NCBI GenBank assembly: GCA_963757335.1
Contig: CAVWRJ010000001.1
Span: 6,917 to 70,916, forward strand
Direction of reading: 5' to 3'
From: an uncultured Acidobacteriota bacterium
GTDB taxonomy: Bacteria > Acidobacteriota > Thermoanaerobaculia > Multivoradales > UBA5704
DNA length: 64,000 nucleotides
A program made the position numbers and the translations under genes. The notes below the pieces were generated by a model that saw only the letters and a program-made list of their open reading frames with translations, was not told the DNA's origin and did no database searches. Numbering within the stretch: position 1 is the stretch's first letter; every line of letters starts with the position of its first letter. Below are positions 3,254 to 60,910 of the stretch, piece by piece.

Positions 3254-4038
3254 TCATCGCCTGGTCAGATCGCGCCAGGGCAGCAACATCGACACGCGCT
3301 CCCTGTAGCGGCGGTATTCGTCTCCGAACATGTCGACCAGGTCGCGCTCTTCCAGGAAAATGCCGACGAAGATGTAGGCCGTGGTCACCGCGGCGAACAG
3401 CAGATGCCCTACGCTCATCGTGGGCGCCGCCCAAAACGCGATGGCAAAGCCCAGATAGATCGGGTGCCGCACGAATTTGTAATACAGCGGCGTCCGGAAG
3501 CGCGGCGTCGGCGTCTCAAGACCGGAGAGATTGTTGGCGACCTGGTGCAATCCAAACAGCTCGAAATGATTGATCAGGAAAGTGCTGCTCAACACGATCA
3601 GCCAGCCCACGAACGACAAGGCCGTGATCGTCACCGCCATTTCCGGCTCCTCGATATGCCAGAGGATTTCCGGCATCGGACGCCACTGCCAGAACAGCAG
3701 GATCAGCGTCAGGCTCGCGAACAGCACATAGGTGCTGCGCTCCACGGGCTTGGGCACATATTGCGTCCACCATTGCTTGAACTGCTTGCGCGCCATCACG
3801 ACTGTGCTGCACGGCGAACAGGGTCATCAGCAGGAGATTGATGATGAGCGCTTCGGCGATCGACGAGGCCGGGCCGTCGTCGATCGTCTTTGGGCACCAC
3901 CAGGCCCGTCACGAAGCCGACGGCATAGAGAAATGTGACGAAAAACACCAGATAGGCGACAAACCCGTAAAGAAATGCGGTAAATCTGAATATTCGATTT
4001 CCCGATAAGTCGGGGCTAATGGCTTGAGACTCGGTCAT
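3254..4038 (-). CDS. Polytopic membrane methyltransferase family protein (ICMT/PEMT-like; MddA-like is possible), two frameshifts
   Basis: The C-terminal 181 aa (ORF 3254..3799) contain FVRHPIYLGFAIAFWAAP...FLEERDLVDMFGDEYRRYRERV, typical of the ICMT-like family. The N-terminus MTESQAISPDLSGNRIFRFTAFLYGFVAYLVFFVTFLYAVGF starts at ATG 4038 with a GGAGA RBS. The middle segment (TIDDGPASSIAEALIINLLLMTLFAVQHS) is only readable in a third frame. Confidence 0.65.
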
Positions 4039-4131
4039 AATCGTCTCCGGTTTGGGCAATAAAGGGGATCGCGACAACCGTCGCGACACCTGAAGGATGC
4101 CCGGAACGCGGCGGCGAGACTTTGCCCGGCG

Positions 4132-4171
4132 CTTGATTTATCCCTGAGACGAACTTGATTATTTCTTGAGA
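4132..4171 (+). promoter_or_regulatory. Four direct CTTGAnn repeats at exact 11-bp phasing in the divergent promoter region upstream of the wHTH-TPR regulator
   Basis: The repeats are CTTGATT at 4132, CCTGAGA at 4143, CTTGATT at 4154 and CTTGAGA at 4165. The block 4121-4173 is about 75% identical by eye to 8111-8161, upstream of the paralogous regulator. Confidence 0.5.
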
Positions 4172-4190
4172 CCCGCCGGTCGGAGCATTC

Positions 4191-5755
4191 ATGCAGTTCA
4201 CATTTGACGATCACACGCTTGATACCGAGCGCCGCGAGTTGCTCCGCGGCGGAGCCGTGATTGCCGTGCAGCCGCAAGTGTTCGACCTACTGGTCTATTT
4301 GGTGCAGAACCGGGAGCACGTCGTCAGCAAGGATGATCTCATCGCCCTGGTCTGGCAGGGCCGGATCGTGTCGGACTCGACCCTCACCAGCCGGATCAAT
4401 GCCGCGCGTACAGCCATCGGCGACAGCGGCAAGGACCAGAAATTGATCCGGACAATTCCGCGAAAGGGCGTTCGCTTCGTTGGCAGTGTGATCGAGCAAC
4501 TTCGCGACCCTCAACCGGCCGCCGCGCCGGTGCAGGAAAGCGTGGCCGCGCTCGGCTCTGCCATTGCCCGAACGGCCGGCGATCGCCGTGCTCCCCTTCA
4601 CCAACATGAGCGGCGAGCGCGGAACAGGAATATTTTTCCGACGGCATCAGCGAGGACATCATCACCGCTCTGTCCAAGCTGCGCTGGTTCTTCGTGATCG
4701 CGCGCAACTCTTCCTTCATCTACAAGGGCAACGCCGTCCATTTGAAGCAGATCGCCGAGGAACTTGGCGTGCGTTACGTCGTCGAGGGCAGCGTGCGGAA
4801 GGACGGCGACCTCGTGCGCATCACGGCGCAGCTCAACGACGCGACGACGGGAAGCCACATCTGGGCGGAGCACTATGACCGGGATCTCACCGACGTTTTT
4901 GCGGTTCAGGACGAGATCACCGATGCCATCGTCGCCACCATCGAGCCAAAGATCTATGTCGCGGAAAATTTCCGTGCCCGGCGCAAGCCGCCAAATAGCC
5001 TGGATGCGTGGGATCTGGTGATGCGGGCCATGTCGCATTTCTGGCGGGTGACCCGGCAGGACAATATGGTGGCGCAGGCACTGCTCGAGAAGGCGATCGC
5101 CATCGACCGGCACTACGGCCAGGCCAACGGCTTGCTCGCCACCAGTCATATGTTTGGCGTTCACATGGGTTGGGCGGATATCACCATCGCGGCGCCTGTC
5201 GCCGAACGCGCCGCGCTGGCGGCGGTCCTGTCCGACAGCCAGGATCCCTGGGCGCACAACGCGCTGGCCAGCGTCTATTTTTCCACGCGGCGGCTGGACG
5301 CTTCAATGGCCGAGTTTGAACTGGCGCTGCAGCTCAACCCGAATTTCTCGCTGGCGCACGGCTATTACGGATTGGCATTGACCTATTGCGGGCGCTGGCA
5401 GGAAGCCCATCAGGCGGCGCAGCATGCGTTACGGCTGAGCCCGCGCGATCCCTTCTCGGCGATCTATTACGGTGTCGCGGCCTATGCGCAGTTTGTCGGC
5501 AAGAACTATCCGGAAGCTATCGGGCTTTCGCGCGAAGCCATCCGGCAACGCAGCGATTTCTCCGGCGGTTATCGGGTGCTGACGGTTGCCGCCGGCATGG
5601 CGGGACAAGTCGACGTCGCCGCGGCCGCTCTGAAAGAGCTGCGCCGCGCGCAACCGAATATCTCGCTCGGCTGGATCGCCAGCCAATTGCCATGGAAGCT
5701 GGACTCCGACCGCGAGCATTATCTGGAGGCCTTCCGCCGGGCGGGCTTGGACTAG
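4191..5755 (+). CDS. Winged-helix (OmpR/CadC-type) DNA-binding domain plus TPR regulator, two frameshifts
   Basis: MQFTFDDHTLDTERRELLRGGAVIAVQPQVFDLLVYLVQNREHVVSKDDLIALVWQGRIVSDSTLTSRINAARTAIGD is a trans_reg_C-like wHTH in frame 0. PAIAVLPFTNMSGE is in ORF 4564. FVIARNSSFIYKG...VVEGSVRK and the TPR-like C-terminal half are in ORF 4694..5755. Confidence 0.7.
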
Positions 5756-5825
5756 CGGCAGGTCAGCGCGGACGCCCGCCGGGCCGCAGCCCGGCGCGCC
5801 GTCGCGGTCATCGATCGAGACGCTG

Positions 5826-6078
5826 CTACCGCGCCCGTGTTTCCGCAGCTTCGTCCAGACCGTAGTCGATCTCACCGCGGCAGATGCCGATGTCCTTTAG
5901 TTCCCGGTCACTGAACAGGCGCAGCGCGGCGAGCTGCGCCTGACGTTCGTGCCGCGCGATCGCCGCGGCAACCAGGCGATCAACGAGGCGGCCTAGCCAC
6001 ACCAGAAAACTGCCAACACTGCTCCGGTTTCGTGAGGAGGCCAGCGGATAGCTGGGGGATATTGCTGAGCATCGTCAT
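5826..6078 (-). CDS. DUF1127-type small protein (probable frameshift between ATG 6078 and the conserved C-terminal part)
   Basis: My manual translation of 6002..5826 gives VWLGRLVDRLVAAAIARHERQAQLAALRLFSDRELKDIGICRGEIDYGLDEAAETRAR*, with the DUF1127 hallmark LSDRELKDIG. At 58 aa it falls below the ORF-track cutoff. A good AAGGA RBS precedes ATG 6078, but that ATG is in another frame. Confidence 0.5.
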
Positions 6079-6223: not shown

Positions 6224-7081
6224 TCATCCGCGCAGCATCCGCGAAGCTGGCGTCGCCGTGCCGATGGCCGTGGATGTGGTCTTGTCAGCTGCGGAGACGT
6301 GCTGCGCCAGCGTTCGCGCGACTTCTTCGGCGTGAGTCGAAATCATGAAATGGGCCGCTCCGCCGATGGTAACGGCCGAGGCTCTGGTGCATTGGGCCAG
6401 CAGCTGGTTGGTTCGCTGAACCGCCGGATGGCTGTTCTCGCCCCACAGCACGAGCGTGGGGATGTCGATTTTGGCGAGCGAAGGCCGCGTCAGCCGGAAG
6501 CCATAGCCGCTTGCCCAATCCAGAATGTTGGTCGCCGTGGTCTCAATGGCGTAGTCGCGAACGCGCTGCGGCCAACCGGCAAACGTGCCCGCGCCGCCGT
6601 AGAAATCGATCATCTGCTCGATCGCGTTGCGGTCGCCGGCCTGGAACAGGCTGAAATAGATGTCGGTCATTTCGCGAAAAGACCGATACTGCGAGTACTC
6701 TCCCATCTGCCGCAGTATTTCCGGCGCGGGCGCCTCCAGGATCGCGAGACTCAGCAATGGCACCTTGTTCCGGAGCGCGACCGCAAGCGCGCTGAGGCCG
6801 CCGAACGAGTGGCCGACGAGGTGCACCGGACAAGCCGCGCGCCGAATCACCGACTCAAGAATTTCGGCTTCATGACCGATGTCGCTATCGACGAGCGTGC
6901 GGCGCTCGGCGGTCCCTCCGTAGCCGAGCAGGCTCGTCGTCACGCATCGGAAGCGGTTCTGCCACTGGGAGATGATCGGCCGCCACGCGGCGCCGGTGCT
7001 GCAGGAGCCCGGCACAAGCACGATGGTCGGCCCCTGCCCGCTCTCGTCGTAGTCGATATTGCCGCGCCTGTCTTCGATCAT
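6224..7081 (-). CDS. Alpha/beta hydrolase
   Basis: This is an intact 285-aa ORF. It shows TIVLVPGSCSTGAAW, the nucleophile elbow VHLVGHSFGG, and a C-terminal GGAAHFMISTH carrying the catalytic His region. Confidence 0.8.
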   Translation of the reverse strand: MIEDRRGNIDYDESGQGPTIVLVPGSCSTGAAWRPIISQWQNRFRCVTTSLLGYGGTAERRTLVDSDIGHEAEILESVIRRAACPVHLVGHSFGGLSALAVALRNKVPLLSLAILEAPAPEILRQMGEYSQYRSFREMTDIYFSLFQAGDRNAIEQMIDFYGGAGTFAGWPQRVRDYAIETTATNILDWASGYGFRLTRPSLAKIDIPTLVLWGENSHPAVQRTNQLLAQCTRASAVTIGGAAHFMISTHAEEVARTLAQHVSAADKTTSTAIGTATPASRMLRG

Positions 7082-10891: not shown

Positions 10892-11345
10892 GTGATCGAC
10901 AGACGGAATCTCTTGAAATATTCGCTCCTCGGTACCGCTGTGGCGCCTTTCGCCGGCCTGGCCAGTTCGGCCTTCGCGGCCGACAGCAAGGTCCTGGTGT
11001 CGGAAGCCGTCCGGCTCGGAATGTACGCCTCGCTCTACGTCGCTGCCGATAAGGGGCTGTTCGCCAAGCACGGCCTCGACGCCGATGTTTCGACCGCCGG
11101 CGGCATCGCGCTGCCCGTGCCGATCCTGTTGTCAGGACGCGGCCAGATCGGCGTGACCAGTCCCGGCATGTCGGTCAACGCAACGCGCGAGGGCGGCAAG
11201 ATCAAGAACATCGCCAAGATCGTCGGCGGGGTTTCGATGTGGGGCATGACGCGGTCCGACAGCACGATCAAGACGATCGAGGATCTGCGCGGCAAGACCA
11301 TCGCGACACTCAAATTCCCATCTTCCACCATCCAGGTCCCGGTCG
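10892..11345 (+). pseudogene. ABC transporter periplasmic substrate-binding protein (NMT1/SsuA-like), N-terminal ~150 aa only
   Basis: A GTG at 10892 gives a Tat-like signal VIDRRNLLKYSLLGTAVAPFAGLASSAFAADSK. This is followed by LVSEAVRLGMYASLYVAADKGLFAKHGLDADV...DLRGKTIATLKFPSSTIQ. Protein-like sequence stops near 11345, where the frame runs antisense into the 3' end of the sulfatase gene. Confidence 0.55.
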
Positions 11346-12734
11346 CCTTGACCGCAGGGGCGGGAGTGGCGGCACGAAAGGCGATCAGGCGCTCTCCGAG
11401 CGCGGCCAGCGTGCCGGCATACCGACCGTCGTCGGCGAGATTGACCTGCTCTAAGGGATCGCCGGCGCGATCGAAGAGGAGCGCCGGACGGTCGTCTGGA
11501 CCGAATTCGATTTTGAAGCGCTCGTCGACGATCGCCGTGTCGCCGAGAAATTCGCTGACCGCAAACTCCCGGTGGGCGGTCGCCCTGCCCTCGATCAATG
11601 GTCGCAGCGATTTGGCGTGCGACAGTCCGGCGAGGCTGCCGCCGGCATAGTCGGCAAGGGTGGCGCCGACATCCATCCATTCGGCGATCACCGAGAGCTC
11701 GCGGCTCCCGTTCGCGGCGTCAAGGTTCGGCGGCCGAACGATGAGCGGAACCTGGACGACGGGATCGAGAAAGTTGGCCTTGTAGACCAGGCCCTGATCG
11801 CCGTTCATCTCGCCGTGATCCGAGGTGAAGACGATCAACGTCCGCTCGAGCTCGCCCCGCCGGCGAACGACTTCCAGGATGTTCCCGATCTGCTCGTCGA
11901 TCAGGGTCACGTTGCCGGCATAGTTGGCGCGCATGGCGCGCACCTCGTCGGGCAGGAGCGGCGGGCTGTAGAATCCGGAGTCGAACGCCCGCCGCAGCAG
12001 GCCGCGCACCTGCTCGTGCCCAGCGAGCCGCGGCGTGGGTGCGGGATGTCCGCCTCTGCGTAGAGGCTCGCGTAGGGTTCAGGAGCATCCCAGGGCTCGT
12101 GCGGGCCGCCGAAGCTCACCCAGCAGAACCAGGGCTGCTGACCGTCGAGGCCAGCTAGATAGCTCGCGGCCTGGCGCCCCACGTAGGTATCATAATGATG
12201 CTCGGCACCGAGCACCGAGGGCCGGGCGACATAGCGCTTCGAGCGAATGCGGTCGGCTAAATCTTCGCGGAAGCGCTCCCACAGCCCCTGCTCCTGCCAG
12301 GACTGCGTCATGTTGCTCAGGACATGCATGCTCGCATGAGGGCCGGCGGTCTCGTCCACGACCTGCAACCCATAGGCGTGCATGAGATCGACGCGGTCGC
12401 GCAGATCGCCTTCGTGGGGATGCAGGTGGGTCTTGCCGAACAGGCTGGTGCGGTATCCGGCCCGCTCGACCGCCTGCATCCAGTTGGGGTACCGGGGGTT
12501 GAGGGTACGGGTTTCGTTCTGCCACACGCCGGTCTGATGGGGATAGAGACCGAGCGCGAGGCTGAAGCGGGCCGGAATGCACTCTGCCGAGTTGGTGACG
12601 ACCCCGTGCAAGAGGAAACCTGCGCGCGCCAGCCGGTCGAGGTTCGGCGTTCGGGTCCACCCATTGACAATCCCCAGCGCGTCCGCGCGCATCTGGTCGG
12701 CCATCAAGAAGAGGATGTTGGGTGAGGTCGGCAT
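11346..12734 (-). CDS. Sulfatase-family hydrolase (arylsulfatase-like), frameshifted near 12010-12050; natural stop not identifiable
   Basis: MPTSPNILFLMADQMRADALG...CIPARFSLALGLYPHQTG is in ORF 11907..12734 and resembles the sulfatase N-terminal motif region. LIVFTSDHGEMNGDQGLVYK is in ORF 11035..12009. That ORF reads on without a stop into the antisense of the binding-protein gene. Confidence 0.7.
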
Positions 12735-15444: not shown

Positions 15445-15700
15445 AGGTCAGTCACGGCTGAATCGCCGGGAGGCGATGGCTCATCCCAGAGTGCGGATTC
15501 GAGCCTTGGCCTGAGCAGTTTGCTGAGATCGCCAGCAGCGCGAGTGCACAACTGAGCCCACTGCGGTAGTCTGCTGACAGGGCGGCAAGCCGCCGCTCAT
15601 TGGCAGTCCCGTTAGCGGCACAGAGATCCTAGCGAGCATTTGCGGCACCAACTATGGCACGACACAGCATACAAACCGACCGGATGAGTGTGTTGGTTCC

Positions 15701-16645
15701 GTGAACTCCTTAGCGAAGAACCCACAGACTGACCTTTGGAAGTTGCGCTGTGGACCAGCGGGTCTCCACGCATTCAACCGTACCACCGGCCTGAACGTCC
15801 TGCTCGACGAGATCCCTGTTCCAGCCTCACTATACTCGCGGGCGCCTCGTCACGTCTCGATTGCACTCACGAACCGGTGCGACTTGGCCTGCGCTCATTG
15901 CTACGCGCCGAAGGCCCGAGCCGAGCTTCGGTACGACATGGTTACGGCCTGGCTCGCCGAGCTGGATGCGAACGGCACTCTTGGAGTCGGCTTTGGCGGA
16001 GGTGAGCCCACGCTCTACCCAGAATTCGCCAGCCTGTGTCAGCATGCGGCGCGCGAGTCGCAGCTCTCTGTGACGTTCACCACGCATGGGCACCACATTG
16101 ACGAAGCCATGGCCGATGAGCTTCGTGGGAGCGTCCACTTCATCCGCTTGAGCATGGATGGAGTCGGCCATACCTACGAATCCATCCGGCGACGCTCCTT
16201 CCACGACCTGCTCGCGCGCATGAAACTCGTGCGAACTATCGCCAGCTTCGGCGTAAACTTCGTCGTGAACGAACACACGTTACCCGATCTCGATGAAGCG
16301 GTCGCTATCGCCGCCGACCTCGGGAGCTGCGAGCTGCTGCTACTTCCACAGATGGCGACCCGCAGCTGCTCTCGGCTCGACGACGACACGTTGCAGGGCC
16401 TGCGAGGGTGGGTCGAGGCGTATCGAGGGAGTCTGAGGCTCTGCATCAGCGAGGGAAGCGCGGAGGGATTCCGCACCTGTGACCCAGTCGAGGCAGAGCG
16501 AGGTCTTCGCGCCTATGCGCACATCGACGCAGCGGGCGTGCTGAAGTCGAGCTCGTACCACGCGACCGGAGTGCAGATCGGTGGTGAAGGCGTGCTGAGC
16601 GCGCTTGATCAACTTGCTCACAACCTCGGGGAGAACCACACATGA
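15701..16645 (+). CDS. Radical SAM domain protein (no SPASM-type C-terminal cluster evident)
   Basis: The CxxxCxxC motif CDLACAHC is at 15878-15901, within SIALTNRCDLACAHCYAP. GVGFGGGEPTLYPEF is the glycine-rich SAM motif. The start is GTG. The stop overlaps the next ATG. Confidence 0.85.
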   Translation: MNSLAKNPQTDLWKLRCGPAGLHAFNRTTGLNVLLDEIPVPASLYSRAPRHVSIALTNRCDLACAHCYAPKARAELRYDMVTAWLAELDANGTLGVGFGGGEPTLYPEFASLCQHAARESQLSVTFTTHGHHIDEAMADELRGSVHFIRLSMDGVGHTYESIRRRSFHDLLARMKLVRTIASFGVNFVVNEHTLPDLDEAVAIAADLGSCELLLLPQMATRSCSRLDDDTLQGLRGWVEAYRGSLRLCISEGSAEGFRTCDPVEAERGLRAYAHIDAAGVLKSSSYHATGVQIGGEGVLSALDQLAHNLGENHT

Positions 16646-17037
16646 AGATCTGGTACCAGCATGGCTCCGAGCACTCCGCGAACCTGGTGATGATCGGCCA
16701 CTTCGAGGACGCGACCGAAGCAACGAAGGCGAAGGAGATCATCGACGCGCTCACGAAGCAGGTCGAGGAAGACCAGGACAAGGGCAGCCCCTTGGAACGA
16801 TACGGCAAGGAGATGCTCGACCTGCTGGACCGTCTGAACGTCTCGTCGATCGGGCCGCGGGAGCTTGAGCAGTTCGCCTACGAAGTCAGCGTGAAAGTAG
16901 AGGGAAACAAGATCGTCCTCAAAACGGAGGAAATCGACATCTCCGCCTTCCTCAAGGTCATGTTCAATCGCGGCGCGCGCATCGAGGTCTACTCCGCTCA
17001 CAACCATCCCGACGCCAGTTACGGGAGAGGTCGTTGA
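16642..17037 (+). CDS. Hypothetical 131-aa acidic protein, translationally coupled to the radical SAM gene
   Basis: ATGA start/stop overlap at 16642-16645. The sequence is MKIWYQHGSEHSANLVMIGHFEDATEATKAKEIIDALTKQVEEDQDK.... There is no recognisable motif. The next gene starts 14 nt after its stop. Confidence 0.6.
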   Translation: MKIWYQHGSEHSANLVMIGHFEDATEATKAKEIIDALTKQVEEDQDKGSPLERYGKEMLDLLDRLNVSSIGPRELEQFAYEVSVKVEGNKIVLKTEEIDISAFLKVMFNRGARIEVYSAHNHPDASYGRGR

Positions 17038-17050
17038 GCATGGAGCCGCC

Positions 17051-19531
17051 ATGCCAGCACTGAATTGGGACGCCTTCGCCAGGTTGCCAGGGAGCGCCGA
17101 GAAGAACTTCGAGCTGCTCTGTCGGGGCGTCGTGCGCCACAACTTCGGTAGCTTTGGCGTGCTTCGCGCCCTCGCGAACCAGCCAGGCGTCGAGTTCCAC
17201 CTGAAGCTGGATCGACGTTGTGACGTTCTTGGGGACCCGGGCCGTTGGTGGGGCTGGCAGTGCAAGTGGTACGACCTTCCGGCAAGCGGCGACCTGGGAA
17301 CAACCCGGCGAGCCAAGATCGAGGACGGAATTCGCAAGACGGAAACCCATGTTCCTGGCGTAACGGACTGGGTCTTGTGGACGCGCCGCCCGCTGACCAG
17401 CGCCGACCAAGAATGGTTCAGGGGCATCGCCTCGAAGATGACGTTGCACCTCTGGACGGCGGACGAGATCGACAACTTCCTCGTGGGTCAAGCCGCCGTT
17501 CTGCGTGGCACCTACTTCGGCGAGCTTGTACTGACGCCAGAGCTCCTTCGGGAACGGCATGAGCAGGCGGTCGCCCCAATTCGAGCGAGATGGCAACCTG
17601 AAGTCCACCACGTCGTAGATGCTGAGCGCGAGTTGCGCCGCATGCTCGGTGAGTCAGGCTCCTGGGACGAGCTCCGCGCGCTCGCCGTAGACCTGCGCTC
17701 GATGGTGCAACTCATGGAGGGCGCGCCAACGGTGCCCACAGCCCTTGCGCCCCTAGTGGCGACTGTTGTCGATACGTCGAGGCAGTCTGCTGATGCGCTC
17801 GATCGAATCGCTACTGGGATCCGCGATGGCGATCTCGACCTGCTTCGCGACGACCTCACCTCACAGCCACGCGTCCTTGCGCCCGCCGTCGCCACGGCCC
17901 CTCGACGACTGCGTTCTGGGAACCACCGGGCCGGTCTGTATGCGACGAACGCCGTGACGGGATGTCGTGAGACGTTGCGATTGCTCACCGACATCGAGGC
18001 TGCGTTCTCGTCCCGGGTCGTCGCGGTTCTTGCTCCAGCAGGCTGCGGCAAGACGCAACTTGCAGCGCAGCTCACGGCAGGCACGGATGCGCGCCCTCAC
18101 GGTGTGCTGCTGCATGGTCGTGACCTGCACGCGAACCACACGCTCGACGACTTGGCGCGACGGGTGTCGATCGCGGCTCAGCCAGTTCAGAGCATGGAGT
18201 CTCTTCTCGCGGCCGTGGACGCCGCCGGACAGCGCACTCACCACCGGTTGCCGGTGGTCATCGATGGGCTCAACGAGTCAGAAGATCCACGTGCATGGAA
18301 GCCCCTGCTCGCTGCGCTGGAGACGACACTCGCGAAGTACCCCTACGTGATGTTGGTCTGTACGTTGCGACCTGAGTTTGCGGGCGAGACGCTTGCCGAT
18401 GGAACACGACGCGTCGAGATCAAGGGCTATGGGGCGGAAACGCTCGAGGCCATCCGCGAGCACTTTCGTTATTGGAAGATCGACGCGACTGATGTGTCGC
18501 TGCCCGGATTCCTTCAGCACCCGTTGACCCTGCGGCTCTTCTGCGAGGTGACGAACCCCACGCGGCAAAAAGTGGTCGGTATCGACGCGATGCCGGGCTC
18601 TCTGACTGCTGTGTTTGACCGCTACCTTGATCAAGTGAGCGATCGTGTCGCTGAGCTGGCGCCTCGAACGCACCGGTACTTCGCGCAAGACGTTCGCGCG
18701 GCTTTAGCGGTCATCGCCAACACTCTCTGGGACACGCGCAGTCGTTCCCTAGACATCGACGAGTTGCGCCGGGCCCTTAACGACGCACAGCGGCCGTGGG
18801 ACCAGAGTCTCGTGCGCGCGCTCGAGCACGAAGGAGTCCTGCTGCGCATGCCCTCCACAGGGAACGGCATGTACGTCCCCGTATACGATCGACTCGGAGG
18901 GCACATCATCGCCAACGCGCTGCTCGCGAAGCACGGACAGGTCGGCTTCGAGACATGGATCCGAGAGCCTTCAACGACGACGTTGTTGGCGGGCGACTAC
19001 AACGACCGGCATCCGCTCGCCAACGATGTCGTGTACTCGTTGGTTGGGCAGATCCCTCGGCGATTCCACTCAAAGCAGCTCTGGCAGTTGGTTGATGAGC
19101 CGCTCCGCTCTCGTGCATTGCGCACCGCTGCGAGGCTCGAAGCGGCCTATTTGGACGCGACAACGGTCGAGGCCCTACTTGACGTCGTGCGGCAAGGAGA
19201 CGCCGGGCTTCTCGAGCAGCTCTGGGAGGTGCGAGGAACGCGAGATCACCCGCTCAACGCGGAGGCACTAGACCGAGTGCTGCGGCCGATGAGCGTCGCG
19301 GACCGCGATCTGCGCTGGACGGAGTGGCTTCGGAGGAAGCAAGACGAAGTGCTCCGCAACCTGGAATACCTGGAGCGTCGGTGCCGACAGGGGGAACGCG
19401 GACGGGCGATCGGCTTCGTGCGCGTTGGGTCATGTGGACGCTTACGAGCACGGTTCGACAGCTGCGGGACCAAGCGACTCGCGTGCTCTACTGGTTCGGT
19501 CGAGTCGACCCCGAGGGGCTCTTTGAGCTGA
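17051..19531 (+). CDS. NLR-like protein: N-terminal Mrr/PD-(D/E)xK-like nuclease domain plus NACHT-type P-loop NTPase (probably continuous with the next ORF)
   Basis: The nuclease-like signature is FELLCRGVVRHNFG...QPGVEFHL...WWGWQCKWY, with QxK at 17258-17266. Walker A is VLAPAGCGKTQL (18032-18055). Walker B is LPVVIDGLNES (18254-18277). MLVCTLRPEF resembles the NACHT TSRP motif. The last ~40 codons look non-protein-like. Confidence 0.8.
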   Translation: MPALNWDAFARLPGSAEKNFELLCRGVVRHNFGSFGVLRALANQPGVEFHLKLDRRCDVLGDPGRWWGWQCKWYDLPASGDLGTTRRAKIEDGIRKTETHVPGVTDWVLWTRRPLTSADQEWFRGIASKMTLHLWTADEIDNFLVGQAAVLRGTYFGELVLTPELLRERHEQAVAPIRARWQPEVHHVVDAERELRRMLGESGSWDELRALAVDLRSMVQLMEGAPTVPTALAPLVATVVDTSRQSADALDRIATGIRDGDLDLLRDDLTSQPRVLAPAVATAPRRLRSGNHRAGLYATNAVTGCRETLRLLTDIEAAFSSRVVAVLAPAGCGKTQLAAQLTAGTDARPHGVLLHGRDLHANHTLDDLARRVSIAAQPVQSMESLLAAVDAAGQRTHHRLPVVIDGLNESEDPRAWKPLLAALETTLAKYPYVMLVCTLRPEFAGETLADGTRRVEIKGYGAETLEAIREHFRYWKIDATDVSLPGFLQHPLTLRLFCEVTNPTRQKVVGIDAMPGSLTAVFDRYLDQVSDRVAELAPRTHRYFAQDVRAALAVIANTLWDTRSRSLDIDELRRALNDAQRPWDQSLVRALEHEGVLLRMPSTGNGMYVPVYDRLGGHIIANALLAKHGQVGFETWIREPSTTTLLAGDYNDRHPLANDVVYSLVGQIPRRFHSKQLWQLVDEPLRSRALRTAARLEAAYLDATTVEALLDVVRQGDAGLLEQLWEVRGTRDHPLNAEALDRVLRPMSVADRDLRWTEWLRRKQDEVLRNLEYLERRCRQGERGRAIGFVRVGSCGRLRARFDSCGTKRLACSTGSVESTPRGSLS

Positions 19532-21165
19532 CCATAGACTCGTTGGCCGTGAACGACGCCTACGTCGGTGAGCGCATGCTCGCGGCCACCTACGGCGTCG
19601 TGATGAGCCACCAGCAGGCAGACGCCGACTTCGAGGTCCATCTGGCGCCACTTCTCGATCGGCTTGCGAATGCGCTCGTGGACTCGTCGGCGACCGCGCC
19701 AACCAATCACTACCTAGCGCGCCTCTATGTACGGGGCATCCTCGCGTGCGCTGAGAAATTCTACGCGTCTGCACTTCCCGAGCGTTTGCGCAGTACATGG
19801 TCGTTCAGTATGCCCGCGCCAGTGTCGCCGATCGCGAAAGACGACCCACGAGCCGACGAAGTGGGGCGGACGCTCAACATGGACTTCGAGAACTACACGC
19901 TGGGGCGCCTAGTCGAGGATCGCTCCAACTACGACATGAGTCATCAGGGGCACCAGGCGGCCGTTGCCCACGTGCTCGGCGCCGTGTGGGCGCTCGGCTG
20001 GAGAGCTGCGACATTCGATACGCTGGATCGTGCCATCGCGGGTGATGCTTTTCGGTCTGAAGGCCGTGGGCATCGGCCTCGCGCAGAACGCTACGGGAAG
20101 AAGTACGGCTGGATCGGCTTCTTCACGTACGCCGGGCTGCTCGAAGCACAAGGGCTCTTACCGTGCGGCGATCGGCCGTTCTCTGACGTTGACATCGATC
20201 CCTCGTTCCCCGAACAACCGCCCGTCGACGGGGAGGTGGCCGTCCCGTTGGCATGGCTGGCTCCGTCCATCAAGAGCCACGAGCGCTGGGTCCGAGAGAG
20301 CCAGACATCCGTGCCTCGCACACTCCTCGTTCGGCAGAGGATCGGCGAGCACGATGGGCCTTGGGTTGCCGTTCACGGCTTTGTTAAGGCAGAGGACAGG
20401 GTCCTCGGGCGTGAGGCATGGGCCTTCATCTCTGCGTTGGTGACATCCGAGCAGAGCGCACCGCGACTGGTGGCCGCCCTCAACGCTGGCACACGACCAT
20501 GGGCGGCTCGTGACGTCCCGAGTGACCACTACACATTCGCCAGCGAGATCCCCTGGCACCCGAGCTTTGCCGCCGAAGTGCTTGCCGAATCCGGTCCGGA
20601 GCATGCCTATCGAGAATACGTTCGCGTCGGCACAGGCAACCTGGAGGTCGAGGTCCTCGCGCACGACTACGCTTGGGAGAGCTACCACAGCGAGATGAAC
20701 CGTGCGGGCAGCGCGCGAGTGCCATCGCGCTGCTTCTCTAGCCGGTTCGATCTCCGCAGCGCACCACAGAGCTTTGACCAATTCCTTGCCGACGGAACTC
20801 GGGCTACGGTCACGCTCAGAGGCGTCGACGGACTCGATGGAGACGTCCTGTACGTTCGCGAAGATCTGCTCCGGCAGTATGTGGGCGAGCGCGCCGTCGT
20901 CTGGTTCGCGTTCGGCGGGCGAGAGCTGCGGCCCTATCCGCCATCACCTCCGCAATGGCTCGTGGATGCTCAGCGGCAACGGGCAAACGAGTGGTGCGAG
21001 GTGCTGACCGAGGCAGACCTCAAGCAGAGTGCAAAACCGCCTGAAAAAAAGAAGGCAGGCAAGCGGCAGCCGGCATCGAGAGGCACCGCGAAGAAGCTAT
21101 CCGCCAAGAAGGTCCCGAAGCAGGCTGCATCCAAGAGTACGAAACCGGCCGGGAGGAAGCCGTGA
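19324..21165 (+). CDS. C-terminal (putative sensor) portion of the NLR-like protein, or a separate overlapping gene; Lys-rich basic tail
   Basis: It overlaps the previous ORF by 208 nt in another frame. Protein-like sequence starts about LRARWVMWTLTSTVRQLRDQATRVLYWFG. If it is a separate gene, the only ATG candidate is 19432. It ends KQSAKPPEKKKAGKRQPASRGTAKKLSAKKVPKQAASKSTKPAGRKP*. Confidence 0.6.
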   Translation: MASEEARRSAPQPGIPGASVPTGGTRTGDRLRARWVMWTLTSTVRQLRDQATRVLYWFGRVDPEGLFELTIDSLAVNDAYVGERMLAATYGVVMSHQQADADFEVHLAPLLDRLANALVDSSATAPTNHYLARLYVRGILACAEKFYASALPERLRSTWSFSMPAPVSPIAKDDPRADEVGRTLNMDFENYTLGRLVEDRSNYDMSHQGHQAAVAHVLGAVWALGWRAATFDTLDRAIAGDAFRSEGRGHRPRAERYGKKYGWIGFFTYAGLLEAQGLLPCGDRPFSDVDIDPSFPEQPPVDGEVAVPLAWLAPSIKSHERWVRESQTSVPRTLLVRQRIGEHDGPWVAVHGFVKAEDRVLGREAWAFISALVTSEQSAPRLVAALNAGTRPWAARDVPSDHYTFASEIPWHPSFAAEVLAESGPEHAYREYVRVGTGNLEVEVLAHDYAWESYHSEMNRAGSARVPSRCFSSRFDLRSAPQSFDQFLADGTRATVTLRGVDGLDGDVLYVREDLLRQYVGERAVVWFAFGGRELRPYPPSPPQWLVDAQRQRANEWCEVLTEADLKQSAKPPEKKKAGKRQPASRGTAKKLSAKKVPKQAASKSTKPAGRKP

Positions 21166-21511
21166 CCACGCCGCCGGGCAGTTGCCTATGGAGCCGACCG
21201 CTGAAGGGCCGGCGCTGGATTCGCCGTAGACTAGACCGCCTCCACGTTGACCACCAACTGCGCCGCCGACCTCGGGGCGGGGCGCCAGGGGGATACCGAA
21301 GTCCGCCAAGGTGGGAAGCCCGGGCGCCACCGTCGTCCAGAGCGCAGCCCTGCTCAACTCTTGCAGGGCCGAGGGATAGGCGGGTGGCCCCACAGCCGAC
21401 CGCGCAAAGCGATAGGCTCAGGCGTAAGATAGGGTGCGATGCGCTGAAACAGCCTGAGACAAAAGTCGGGGGATGTTTTCTCTCCTTGTTCCCTGGTTGT
21501 TCCTCTCACTC

Positions 21512-21539
21512 ACGACATCTACCCATAAACTATTATAAT
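21512..21539 (+). promoter_or_regulatory. Sigma70-like promoter candidate facing the repeat array
   Basis: ACGACA (21512-21517), a 16-bp spacer, then a perfect TATAAT (21534-21539). It sits in the most AT-rich stretch of the islet. Confidence 0.3.
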
Positions 21540-21543
21540 CAGA

Positions 21544-21578
21544 CCTTACTGGAGTAAGGCCTCCCGCCCAGGGGGAGG
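21544..21578 (+). other. Two adjacent short hairpins immediately downstream of the promoter candidate
   Basis: Hairpin 1 is CCTTAC-TGGA-GTAAGG (21544-21559). Hairpin 2 is CCTCCC-gcccagg-GGGAGG (about 21560-21578). Confidence 0.4.
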
Positions 21579-21583
21579 GACCC

Positions 21584-21728
21584 ACCCGCCGCGAGACACG
21601 AGCACCCGCCGCGAGACACTAACTCCCCTCACGAGACACTAAGCATCGACAGCGAGACACTAAGCGTCGACGGCGAGACACCAGCTGCCTGCCGCGAGAC
21701 ACAGACGGCTCGCCACGAGACACAGCCG
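21584..21728 (+). repeat. Seven tandem 20-21-bp units, each with the core CGAGACAC plus 12-13 variable nt
   Basis: CGAGACAC starts at 21592, 21612, 21632, 21653, 21674, 21695 and 21716. The spacings are 20, 20, 21, 21, 21 and 21. Confidence 0.9.
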
Positions 21729-22022
21729 GCCGGCGCGCGGTGACTCGTGGCAGGCGCACGGTGTTCCGTGGCAGGCGCATGGTGTTCCGTGGCAGGCGCA
21801 TGGTGTTCCGCGACAGGCGCGCGGTGACTCACGGCAGGCGCATGGTGTTCCGCGGCAGGCGCGCGGTGACTCGCGGCAGGCGCATGGTGTTCCGCGGCAG
21901 GCGCGCGGTGACTCACGGCAGGCGCATGGTGTTCCGCGGCAGGCGCGCGGTGACTCGCGGCAGGCGCATGGTGTTCCGCGGCAGGCGCGCGGTGACTCGC
22001 AGCAGGCGCATGGTGTTCCGTA
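21729..22022 (+). repeat. Fourteen tandem 21-bp units of two alternating types (42-bp higher-order repeat)
   Basis: Type A is GCAGGCGCATGGTGTTCCGCG (8 copies). Type B is GCAGGCGCGCGGTGACTCGCG (6 copies). The units are nearly identical. The bottom-strand cores CGAGTCAC and CGGAACAC resemble the top-strand core of the preceding block. Confidence 0.9.
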
Positions 22023-22125: not shown

Positions 22126-23169
22126 TCAGGCGACCTTGGCGCCGCAGCCCGGGCAGAAGCGGGAGCCCGGGGGGAGCTTGGTGCCGCATTGGCTGCAGAA
22201 GGCGGGGGTCGCCCCCGCTCCTCCCTCCGTCGCGGCACCGGCGGCTCCGGCGGGCACTGGCGCGGCGGGAGCCGGAGCAGAACCGGCAGCGGGTGCGGCG
22301 GGCGAAGCGGGGGCGGGAGCGCCACCGCTCTGCATGGCGTCGCGCATCATCTGGGGGAGCATCATGCCGACGCCCACTCCGGCGCCGAGGCCGATCCCGG
22401 CTCCGGCCGCGCCGCCCGGCTGCTGGGCGGCGTCGCCGATGGCGCGGGCGGTCTTGAACTTCAGGTAGGCGTTCATGTCGCCCACGACGCCCATGCCGCT
22501 CCTCTCGTCGATCATCTTCTGCACTTCCTCGGGCGGGGTGATGGCGCCGAGGAAGAGGTCGACGAGGTCGATCCCGTACTTATTGAAGTCGTCGGCCACC
22601 CGGGCTTTGAGGCCCATGGCGAGCTCGTCGTAGACCTTCGGCAGGTCGAAGATCGTCTGCAGGTTCTCGCCCAGGAGGTCGGTCAGGCGGGCGACGATGA
22701 CGTCCCTGAAGTAGGACTCGACCCGGTCGGCCGAGTAGGCGCCCACCGTGCCGACGACGGAGTTGACGAACTGCTGGGCGTTGACGACCCGCACCGCGAA
22801 CTTGCCGAAGGCCCGGAGGCGGACCATGGCGATCTCTTTGTCGCGGTAGACGACCGGCTCTTTCGTCCCCCACTTCAAGTCGAGGAAGGTCTGGGTGGAG
22901 ACGAAGACCACCGCCGCCTGGAACGGCGAGGTGCCGCCGAAGGGGATCGAAAAGAGGCTCGCCAGGATCGGCACGTTCTGGGTCGCCAGGGTGTGGCGGC
23001 CGGGGCCGAAGGTGTCTAAGGCCTTGCCGTCGCGGAAGAAGACCGCCTGCTGGCTCTCCTCGACGATCAGCTGGCTGCCGAGGCGGACGGCGGCGGTGCC
23101 GTCGGCCGGCCAGCGCGCCACGATCGTCTGGCCCGTGGGGTCGTGATATTGGATCACATCCATCGTCAT
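22126..23169 (-). CDS. SPFH/Band-7 domain protein with Gly/Ala/Pro-rich linker and C-terminal zinc ribbon
   Basis: MTMDVIQYHDPTGQTIVARWPADG...LIVEESQQAVFFRDGKALDTFGPGRHTL...FGKFAVRVVN matches the YdjI-like SPFH (Band_7_1) pattern. The C-terminal CSQCGTKLPPGSRFCPGCG is a zinc ribbon. Confidence 0.85.
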   Translation of the reverse strand: MTMDVIQYHDPTGQTIVARWPADGTAAVRLGSQLIVEESQQAVFFRDGKALDTFGPGRHTLATQNVPILASLFSIPFGGTSPFQAAVVFVSTQTFLDLKWGTKEPVVYRDKEIAMVRLRAFGKFAVRVVNAQQFVNSVVGTVGAYSADRVESYFRDVIVARLTDLLGENLQTIFDLPKVYDELAMGLKARVADDFNKYGIDLVDLFLGAITPPEEVQKMIDERSGMGVVGDMNAYLKFKTARAIGDAAQQPGGAAGAGIGLGAGVGVGMMLPQMMRDAMQSGGAPAPASPAAPAAGSAPAPAAPVPAGAAGAATEGGAGATPAFCSQCGTKLPPGSRFCPGCGAKVA

Positions 23170-60677: not shown

Positions 60678-60910
60678 TCGAAAAACTCTCCTTCAGCGCC
60701 GAAAAACTCGCGTTTCGCTCGGCAAAACAGTTTCACGATGCCAGTCTGGCGTTTTACGGACCTCGACGCGAGTTTCGCGTGTCGATTTTGGCGTTTTTCG
60801 GGCTCGTGTTTCAGTTTATCCAGGCAAATAGCGAGTTTTTCGGCCTTGTATTTCAGTTTATCCAGGCGAAAATCGAGTTTATCGGGCCGTTGGGCGAGTT
60901 TTTCGGCGGA
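60678..60910. repeat. AT-richer cluster of direct and inverted GAAAAACTC / GAGTTTTTC-type repeats, including a ~41-bp tandem duplication
   Basis: CGAAAAACTC occurs at 60679 and 60700. GCGAGTTTTTCGGC occurs at 60831 and 60894. The tandem pair is TTTCAGTTTATCCAGGC(A/G)AA(A)TA(G)CGAGTTT at about 60806-60845 and 60846-60888. Confidence 0.6.

Follow-up and report, generated by a model that had tools for sequence, protein, structure and literature searches.

A fold-back array of 21-bp phased sites in an Acidobacteriota genome, probably an orphan member of an array family linked to a winged-helix protein

The DNA considered here is a stretch of 64,000 nucleotides from an uncultured Acidobacteriota bacterium (Thermoanaerobaculia; contig CAVWRJ010000001.1, positions 6,917 to 70,916), hereafter called the window. 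At 21584-22022, it contains an approximately 440-bp block of phased repeats with two opposed arms, located in a 960-bp gap between two convergent genes encoding an Avs2-like NLR and an SPFH protein (Table 1). The original prediction, made from the letters only, described two opposed phased blocks of 7 and 14 units, and the positions of the octamer CGAGACAC as well as the output of Tandem Repeats Finder confirm this organization. In block 1, the octamer starts at 21592, 21612, 21632, 21653, 21674, 21695, and 21716, with spacings of 20, 20, 21, 21, 21, and 21 bp. All 7 units contain the exact heptamer GAGACAC, the core of the array family described below. Block 2 is detected by Tandem Repeats Finder at 21727-22020 with a period of 21 (14.0 copies) or 42 (7.0 copies, 91% matches). 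Its units, A (...GGTGTTCCG) and B (...GGTGACTCG), follow the order B A A A (B A)x5, with 13 core spacings of 21 bp. Thus, the predicted 42-bp higher-order repeat is present, with mostly alternating units, but the alternation does not extend to the first four of the fourteen. The 21-mer of the A unit, GGCAGGCGCATGGTGTTCCGC, has 8 matches with up to 3 mismatches, against 0.02 expected. Read on the bottom strand, the cores of block 2 are indeed variants of the octamer, CGAGTCAC in B and CGGAACAC in A. Compared with the family heptamer, GAGTCAC has one mismatch and GGAACAC two. The arms switch at GAGACAC(21717)-AGCCGGCCGGCGCGCG-GTGACTC(21740), where the core starts are 23 bp apart.

The sites are confined to the array. 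No copy of the octamer occurs in the window outside block 1. A search for GAGACAC/GTGTCTC on both strands of the window gives 7 copies within the array and 0 outside, when approximately 8 copies of the heptamer would be expected by chance in 64 kb (dinucleotide-preserving shuffles). The rarity of the ACA, AGA, and TCT codons may be a partial cause of this avoidance. CRISPR arrays have repeats of 23-55 nt that alternate with unique spacers of comparable length, usually near cas genes. The block does not have this organization, as its unit is 21 bp long (8-nt core and 13-nt spacer), its orientation inverts midway and no cas genes are found nearby. It should be noted that the unit counts of the arrays derive from short-read metagenome assemblies and that the exact copy number in the window is an assembly value.

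Table 1. Coordinates of the array and of the features around it in the window.
Feature	Position	Strand or direction	Description
Block 1, forward arm	21592-21723	+	7 x CGAGACAC, each with a 12-13-nt variable spacer
Centre	21724-21739		AGCCGGCCGGCGCGCG, 16 bp; separates the innermost forward and reverse cores
Block 2, reverse arm	21740-22020	-	14 units, 21-bp phase, GAGTCAC/GGAACAC cores
SPFH/zinc-ribbon gene	22126-23169	-	Other flank of the array
Viperin-like radical-SAM gene	15701-16645		Islet, in lower-GC segment upstream of the array
DUF6375 gene	16642-17037		Islet, in lower-GC segment upstream of the array
Sigma-70-like promoter site	21512-21539	directed into the array	ACGACA-16-TATAAT, 10/12 match

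Homologues of the SPFH protein assign the organism to Thermoanaerobaculia. An orthologous locus from a close relative, L174, is available on a 165-kb contig from another metagenome. It is collinear with the window and encodes an SPFH protein 94% identical to that of the window. The alignment covers window positions 33000-24137 (94% identity), 24101-21563 (91%), and 15470-12794 (92%), and approximately 63 bp are found in L174 in place of window positions 15471-21562. This 6.1-kb segment, called the islet below, contains the radical-SAM, DUF6375, and Avs2-like NLR genes and an AT-rich end, and on the right it ends only 29 bp before the array units start. In L174, the array directly adjoins the SPFH terminator hairpin. 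It comprises 16 alternating GAGTCAC/GGAACAC units and 8 GTGTCTCG-type units (5 of 8 exact), on either side of a GAGTCAC-N16-GTGTCTC centre. Because L174 lacks the islet but has the array, the array is not part of an acquired islet, as had been envisaged, but backbone DNA. This comparison of sequences places it in the chromosome backbone, on the downstream side of the SPFH gene, with the islet, including its promoter-like end, inserted beside it. The two elements are thereby separated, and the limits of the defense islet are set at 15471-21562. Co-occurrence of such arrays with either set of neighboring genes had been proposed as a check. The array does stand beside the SPFH gene in L174, but homologues of the radical-SAM, DUF6375, Avs2, and SPFH proteins are found at 0 of 59 array loci (427 kb). 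Moreover, the alternating block of variant cores is common to the window and L174 and therefore predates the split of the two lineages or is maintained, contrary to the idea of a recent expansion of block 2.

Genomes, one for each GTDB species, were first scanned for three CGAGACAC at 20-21-bp spacing. This gave at least 117 loci, nearly all of them unrelated: they are either satellites of the heptamer (CGAGACA)n or perfect tandem repeats with a 21-mer unit. Two loci in Acidobacteriota metagenome-assembled genomes (MAGs), L002 (Thermoanaerobaculia) and L061, share the design of the window array, with about ten units of (N)GAGACAC plus variable spacer followed by GTGTCTC(N) units; L110 is possibly relevant. 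The architecture pattern GAGACAC-N13/14-GAGACAC-N50..80-GTGTCTC-N14-GTGTCTC, which has 28 specified bases and a chance expectation of about 0, matches 46 loci in soil metagenomes, approximately 30 of them distinct once re-assemblies of one locus are removed, and has 0 matches in viral contigs. In all the arrays found with this pattern, the forward block comes first and the reverse block second. Of 50 junctions, 26 have exactly 23 bp between the last forward and the first reverse core, and 44 fit 23+21k. Hence the length of the centre (N16), not its sequence, is conserved across the family. In a set of 21 non-redundant arrays, successive cores are separated by 21 bp (148 cases), 42 (49), 63 (19), or 84 (5), with few off-phase values. 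In unit logos, which are conditioned on exact cores, the sequence information is limited to T-N-GAGACAC, the spacers having 0-0.7 bit per position. In-phase positions are occupied by 435 exact heptamers and by 140 mostly single-mismatch variants (TAGACAC, GGGACAC, GAGACGC, occasionally GAGTCAC). Besides block 2 of the window, L173 and some of the arrays show the 42-bp alternation.

The window array has the 21-bp phase and the succession of forward and reverse blocks around a core-N16-core centre that characterize this family. The oriented GAGACAC core, present in most units of the family, is found in one arm only, block 1, where it is preceded by C-G instead of the family T-N. The family arrays sit on chromosomal contigs of up to 3.6 Mb, and the genes around them differ between loci, from housekeeping enzymes to kinases and one Cas1 (Pfam, 89 flanking proteins). 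An association with defense islands was considered as a rule and rejected, the only such neighbors being anecdotal: a CRISPR array at L002, a TIR-STAND gene at L126, and a CHAT-NACHT gene at L164. No description of the motif or architecture of these arrays, or of the protein presented below, was found in the searchable literature.

All-versus-all BLAST of the open reading frames (ORFs) flanking the arrays gave a sole recurrent neighbor, a protein of 140-180 residues here named ABP. In L061, L158, L149 (twice), and L147, the 3' end of its gene faces the array, at a distance of 8-120 bp. Truncated ABP remnants are found at L125/L146 and probably at L131, and some remnants are frameshifted. L125 (6381-6540) and L146 are 94% identical to the gene-linked locus L158, but only from an abrupt start inside the last ~120 nt of the ABP gene, a clear case of an array that became an orphan through loss of the 5' part of a linked ABP gene. 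A protein-first search gave 34 clusters, all annotated as 'hypothetical', and an array adjoins 7 of the 7 homologues that were fetched, downstream of the gene in L164, L165, L166, L167, L168, and L170 and upstream in L169. In two remote members, L173 and L171, the gene is also accompanied by an array with a 21-bp (and 42-bp) period; that of L173 is clearly of the fold-back type, with a very different core, GACCGCCCGTTTCCC. Depending on the ABP clade, the core is GAGACAC, GAGACGC, GRGACGC, CGAACRC, GAAACAY, or GACCGCCCGTTTCCC. Extra domains in the longer homologues were considered and rejected: these 'long' members are ORF calls running through the adjacent arrays, with 7-residue-periodic extensions that are translated repeats. 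The arrays thus explain spurious ORFs with 7-residue repeats and N- or C-terminal 'extensions' of ABP proteins in annotations. An exhaustive profile search yielded 606 ABP clusters at 50% identity, 279 of them with E<=1e-10. ABP has no match in Pfam, NCBIfam, or PADLOC, and no relatives in viral contigs.

The AlphaFold2 model of ABP (mean predicted local distance difference test score of 74) has an N-terminal helix (residues 3-40) of the coiled-coil type, a disordered Pro/Ala-rich linker of ~40 residues and a C-terminal winged helix (82-147). The ABP profile matches the DNA-binding domain of Zur/Fur in the PDB (E=1e-3). With Foldseek, SlyA, RovA, Zur, and PadR come on top, the winged helices of Sso10a and RTP being lower (E 3e-3 to 6e-2). 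This layout, in which a flexible linker joins an oligomerizing helix to a small domain for DNA binding, is reminiscent of H-NS, Rok, Sso10a, and RacA. However, the sites of these proteins are degenerate or dispersed, whereas ABP has a dedicated, ordered heptamer array. A promoter-like element, CTTGCC-N17-CGCTA(A/G)(G/C)CT, is found ~50 bp upstream of the ABP start in L061, L158, L164, L165, L167, L168, and L170. In L165, L167, and L168, a single reverse core of the locus's own type immediately precedes the -35 element, a hint, at the level of sequence, of autoregulation of ABP.

Some loci of the family have peculiarities of their own. L126 contains a mirror-image pair of arrays (451-829 and 6423-6799) flanking inverted, diverged copies of TIR-STAND genes, and L149 a similar pair (1360-1733 and 3574-4020) flanking inverted, diverged copies of frameshifted ABP genes. 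These twin arrays may stem from genuine inverted duplications of large size; otherwise, the contigs are palindromic chimeras of the assembly. At L002, a partly degenerate CRISPR array (3540-6020) with ~27 copies of the 37-nt repeat GTCGCAATCCCACCGTACAGATCAGGGCTCTTCCGAC at ~75-bp spacing is located ~400 bp from the fold-back array, and copies of an interspersed repeat of the GATTCTTCGCTGCGCTCAGAATGAC type are also present.

The oriented heptamer, the two-turn phase, the free spacers, the fixed centre, and the linkage to a winged-helix protein with clade-specific cores together make a protein-binding platform the best-supported reading of the array. The initial view, that one type of oriented site is present in both orientations on one face of the helix, also stands as the best one in light of the 21-bp phase and of the linkage of the family to a winged-helix protein. 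The window array is probably an orphan member of the fold-back array family, most likely a DNA target of ABP, as we predict here. The anatomy of the array, the existence of the family, the linkage of gene and array, the fold of the protein, and the location in the backbone are established by the analysis; the binding of ABP, its stoichiometry, and its function are inferred. Each winged helix would read one heptamer, and the N-terminal coiled coil would pair or oligomerize the protein. An ABP dimer covering two neighboring units would fit the 42-bp alternation. The two-turn phase would set all bound proteins on one face of the DNA, and the inversion at the centre would produce a two-fold-symmetric nucleoprotein body of ~0.4-0.5 kb. 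The mixed cores of the window array (GAGACAC vs. GAGTCAC/GGAACAC) might recruit two different paralogues. As to the role of the complex, we tentatively favor a landmark of an architectural or centromere-like kind, or a barrier, over the maintenance of a replicon. A polar barrier of the RTP-Ter type or a titration sink could also be envisaged.

By analogy, the closest logic is that of centromere-like or architectural arrays, such as SopB-sopC, ParR-parC, and TubR-tubC, without the motor. In F sopC/SopB, R1 parC/ParR, and pBtoxis tubC/TubR, the gene of the centromere-binding protein lies beside the array, and TubR is itself a winged-helix protein. Partition centromeres have many phased short sites on which a small DNA-binding protein, acting as a dimer, builds a complex of higher order, as would be the case for the ABP arrays. 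In sopB-sopC, as with ABP, the gene of the binding protein has its array downstream, and in both kinds of system the specificity of the sites diversifies with the protein. Differences should, however, be noted. No conserved nucleoside triphosphatase (NTPase) of the ParA, ParM, or TubZ type is found beside ABP in the 9 gene-linked loci. Fold-back arrays lie on chromosomes in a variety of contexts, often as orphans, and no plasmid or phage association was seen. Finally, partition centromeres consist of direct repeats only, whereas fold-back arrays have two convergent blocks around a fixed centre. Tandem arrays of binding sites with a cognate protein are a known class. What is new here is the fold-back geometry, together with a coiled-coil/winged-helix partner that stands alone and with orphan copies on the chromosome. 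Tentatively, ABP and the fold-back arrays could form a bacterial system not described before. ABP would polymerize on 10-24 phased convergent sites, and the resulting symmetric body could anchor the chromosome in the manner of a centromere, delimit a domain, or act as a barrier in both directions. Rapidly diversifying specificity would insulate paralogous systems from each other, and orphan arrays would be extra platforms used in trans. If the pairing of ABP with the arrays is right, it exposes a protein family of at least 606 clusters (50% identity) whose DNA target can be read beside the gene. The geometry of this target is unusually regular, with its two-turn phase, two-fold symmetry, and fixed centre. 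The pairing could also represent a new way for soil Acidobacteriota to mark or organize their chromosomes.

Several observations weigh against assigning the window array to ABP. The link between the protein and the arrays is drawn from genetic adjacency and from the differences in core between clades, two arguments taken from sequence. The residues of the recognition helix vary alongside the core in some clades, but not cleanly, and L173 has the YRVL helix of the GAGACAC clade yet a very different repeat. No match to ABP is found in the six frames of the 64-kb window with narrow and broad hidden Markov models (HMMs), or in 21 kb of the orthologous locus L174. The window array is therefore an orphan, and in this genome segment ABP would have to act in trans. 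Most of the arrays found with the architecture pattern also lack an ABP gene, and several stand beside decayed ABP genes; an adjacent ABP gene marks only the 'autonomous' form of the family. Within the window array itself, the canonical core is found in 0 of the 14 units of block 2, and this arm may not bind the same protein as block 1. GGAACAC is absent from the core variants seen in other arrays. Comparing the divergence of the array with that of its flanks, for the window and L174, is not enough on its own to demonstrate purifying selection. The window array may thus be partly vestigial, since block 2 holds variant cores only; with no ABP gene nearby, vestigial status is a serious alternative. 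Orphan status and decayed ABP genes would also be expected of an element that is decaying or selfish.

This raises the possibility of a neutral or selfish fold-back satellite, either a decaying remnant of a gene-plus-array unit or a self-expanding repeat, the unit number of which would shift by slippage or unequal exchange and which would have no function here. We consider this explanation unlikely, although it is the strongest competitor of the protein-binding platform. Besides the rarity of linked genes and the truncated or frameshifted ABP remnants, it would account for the unrelated flanking genes, for the homogenized block 2 devoid of canonical cores, and for the drift in unit number between the window (7+14) and L174 (8+16). 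Strain pairs with 99-100% identical flanks also have arrays that are just 84-90% identical and differ in unit counts. Against it, the exact heptamer, the strict phase of 21 bp, and the N16 centre have been preserved in ~30 contexts and several lineages, the cores of block 1 in the window are all exact, and the variant A unit is identical at 21 of 21 positions in L174 despite flanks with 91-94% identity. Moreover, no feature that would explain the spread of such a satellite was found: no outer terminal motifs or target-site duplications are conserved around the arrays, and no transposase is found beside them. For want of conserved termini and target-site duplications, a mobile-element reading was likewise rejected. 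Repetitive extragenic palindromes and bacterial interspersed mosaic elements (REP/BIME) are, like the arrays, intergenic, interspersed, present with both unit orientations and unrelated to the function of the neighboring gene. However, REP/BIME units are individually palindromic (20-40 bp) and reach a high copy number per genome, whereas array units are asymmetric rather than palindromic hairpins and have a strict 21-bp phase with a single orientation switch. There is also no RAYT transposase beside the arrays but a linkage to a winged-helix protein instead, and the core is confined to the array within 64 kb. The foldback (FB) elements of Drosophila, which have two long inverted arms of short tandem repeats with little or no loop, are similar by analogy only: the arrays occur in bacterial hosts and have no sign of transposition, termini, or target-site duplications.

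A polar barrier to replication or transcription, in which a terminator-like winged-helix protein bound to opposed polar sites would stop forks or polymerases whichever side they came from, appears improbable. The model is RTP of Bacillus subtilis, which arrests forks at the opposed IRI/IRII sites beside the rtp gene. As with RTP and its Ter sites, a winged-helix protein with a coiled-coil helix is encoded beside two opposed sets of its own polar sites, and the two blocks of opposed polarity converge on the centre. The array also lies between convergent genes both in the window and in L174. However, Ter comprises two bipartite sites, to be compared with 10-24 sites at 21-bp phase, and the arrays occur in many genomic contexts. 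A preference for convergent intergenic regions was rejected, since tandem (8) and divergent (3) gene pairs are found around arrays in addition to convergent ones (5). In the 64-kb window, the GC-skew profile is flat across the array and shows no switch. The similarity of ABP to RTP, in sequence or fold, is below significance (Pfam E=0.1, PDB E=0.65-0.85, Foldseek rank 37), and two-sided blocks scattered on the chromosome would be costly.

Less probable still is a structured or repeat RNA, as also proposed originally, which would be transcribed from the adjacent sigma-70-like promoter and act as a long hairpin or as a protein sponge. The promoter-like site does point into the array, and single strands fold better than shuffled sequences, with z-scores of -2.6 for the window, -7.8 for L002, and -9.4 for L061. 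The strands of L002 and L061 fold into one long hairpin, and that of the window less well. However, the promoter-like element lies within the islet and is absent from L174; it is therefore islet DNA and not the array's own, and no upstream element is conserved across the array family. Spacer identity is 0.395 between mirror units and 0.406 between non-mirror units. Mirror spacers are thus no more alike than others, which indicates that the pairing of the arms stems from the common unit and is not itself conserved. The hairpin reading was rejected on this ground, the repeated core explaining the strong z-scores. No Rfam model reaches its gathering threshold anywhere in the window, where only chance miRNA-like matches are seen (E ~0.4-0.6). 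In addition, the 21-bp period is what one would expect of B-DNA and not of A-form RNA.

That the array is an iteron origin or a partition centromere of plasmid type, belonging to the radical-SAM/DUF6375/Avs2 islet, is hardly credible, despite its position next to the islet boundary. Phased direct repeats of 21 bp do resemble iterons and parC/sopC arrays, and the Rep-binding repeats of theta plasmids (17-22 bp) share with the array a period of ~21-22 bp and a conserved core with a variable remainder, sometimes in both orientations. Nevertheless, the array is present in L174 without the islet. Consistent with the earlier remark that no par or rep gene is visible, none is found among the neighbors of the array within ~10 kb. 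The DnaA box TTATCCACA has 0 matches with up to 1 mismatch in the whole 64-kb window, and the array has no AT-rich unwinding element of its own, the sole AT-rich stretch being inserted islet DNA. Rep proteins of the WH1-WH2 type are far larger than ABP, which has a single winged helix. The chromosomal location of the family, the lack of hits in viral contigs, and the lack of a conserved NTPase beside ABP also argue against a plasmid-type element.

Equally far-fetched is a protein-coding heptad repeat (21 bp being 7 codons) or an assembly artifact: long ORFs cross the window array in several frames, gene callers elsewhere included such arrays in ORFs, and short-read assemblies can miscount near-identical 42-bp repeats, but the 21 non-redundant arrays have 7 contiguous invariant bases and no three-base periodicity of conservation, the two 20-bp spacings in the window disrupt the frame, the would-be codons ACA, AGA, and TCT are presumably of rare types at a third-position GC content (GC3) of ~0.9, the only full-length plus-strand ORF runs antisense into the SPFH gene, and the independent assembly of L174 holds an orthologous 8+16 array.

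Within the islet, the Avs2-like gene is split into two ORFs (17051-19531 and 19324-21165) that match Avs2 in PADLOC with E=1e-55 and 7e-35. They are in different frames with an overlap of ~200 nt and cover positions 4-801 and 1102-1460 of the PADLOC model, which indicates either a frameshift (pseudogene) or a sequencing error. The AT-rich end of the islet holds, in addition to the TATAAT promoter-like site, the hairpin CCTTACTGGAGTAAGG. No tRNA genes were found at the array locus. A sulfatase gene is also split (11035-12734), into the overlapping ORFs 11907-12734 (Pfam Sulfatase 1-192) and 11035-12009 (199-300), which is possibly a second frameshift in the window.

Among the loci of the first scan, the (CGAGACA)n microsatellites, which have 4 to >60 copies and are unrelated to the fold-back family, occur in Vibrio, Caldilineaceae, Verrucomicrobia, Paenibacillus, and a Metamycoplasmataceae MAG (L003-L005, L008, L017, L021, L024, L029, L032, L040, L083, L098, L104, and others), several genomes having multiple loci. 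L099, in a Bacteroidota MAG, contains a one-directional 21-bp array with a GAGACA core (665-1165) beside two DnaA-box-like motifs, TTATCCAC; it belongs to a different family and may be a feature of an origin region. Finally, a 42-bp tandem repeat unrelated to the array is found in the window at 60793-60887 (2.3 copies, 84% identity), with a sequence that is unusually AT-rich for this genome, GTTTTTCGGGCTCGTATTTCAGTTTATCCAGGCAAAAAGCGA.

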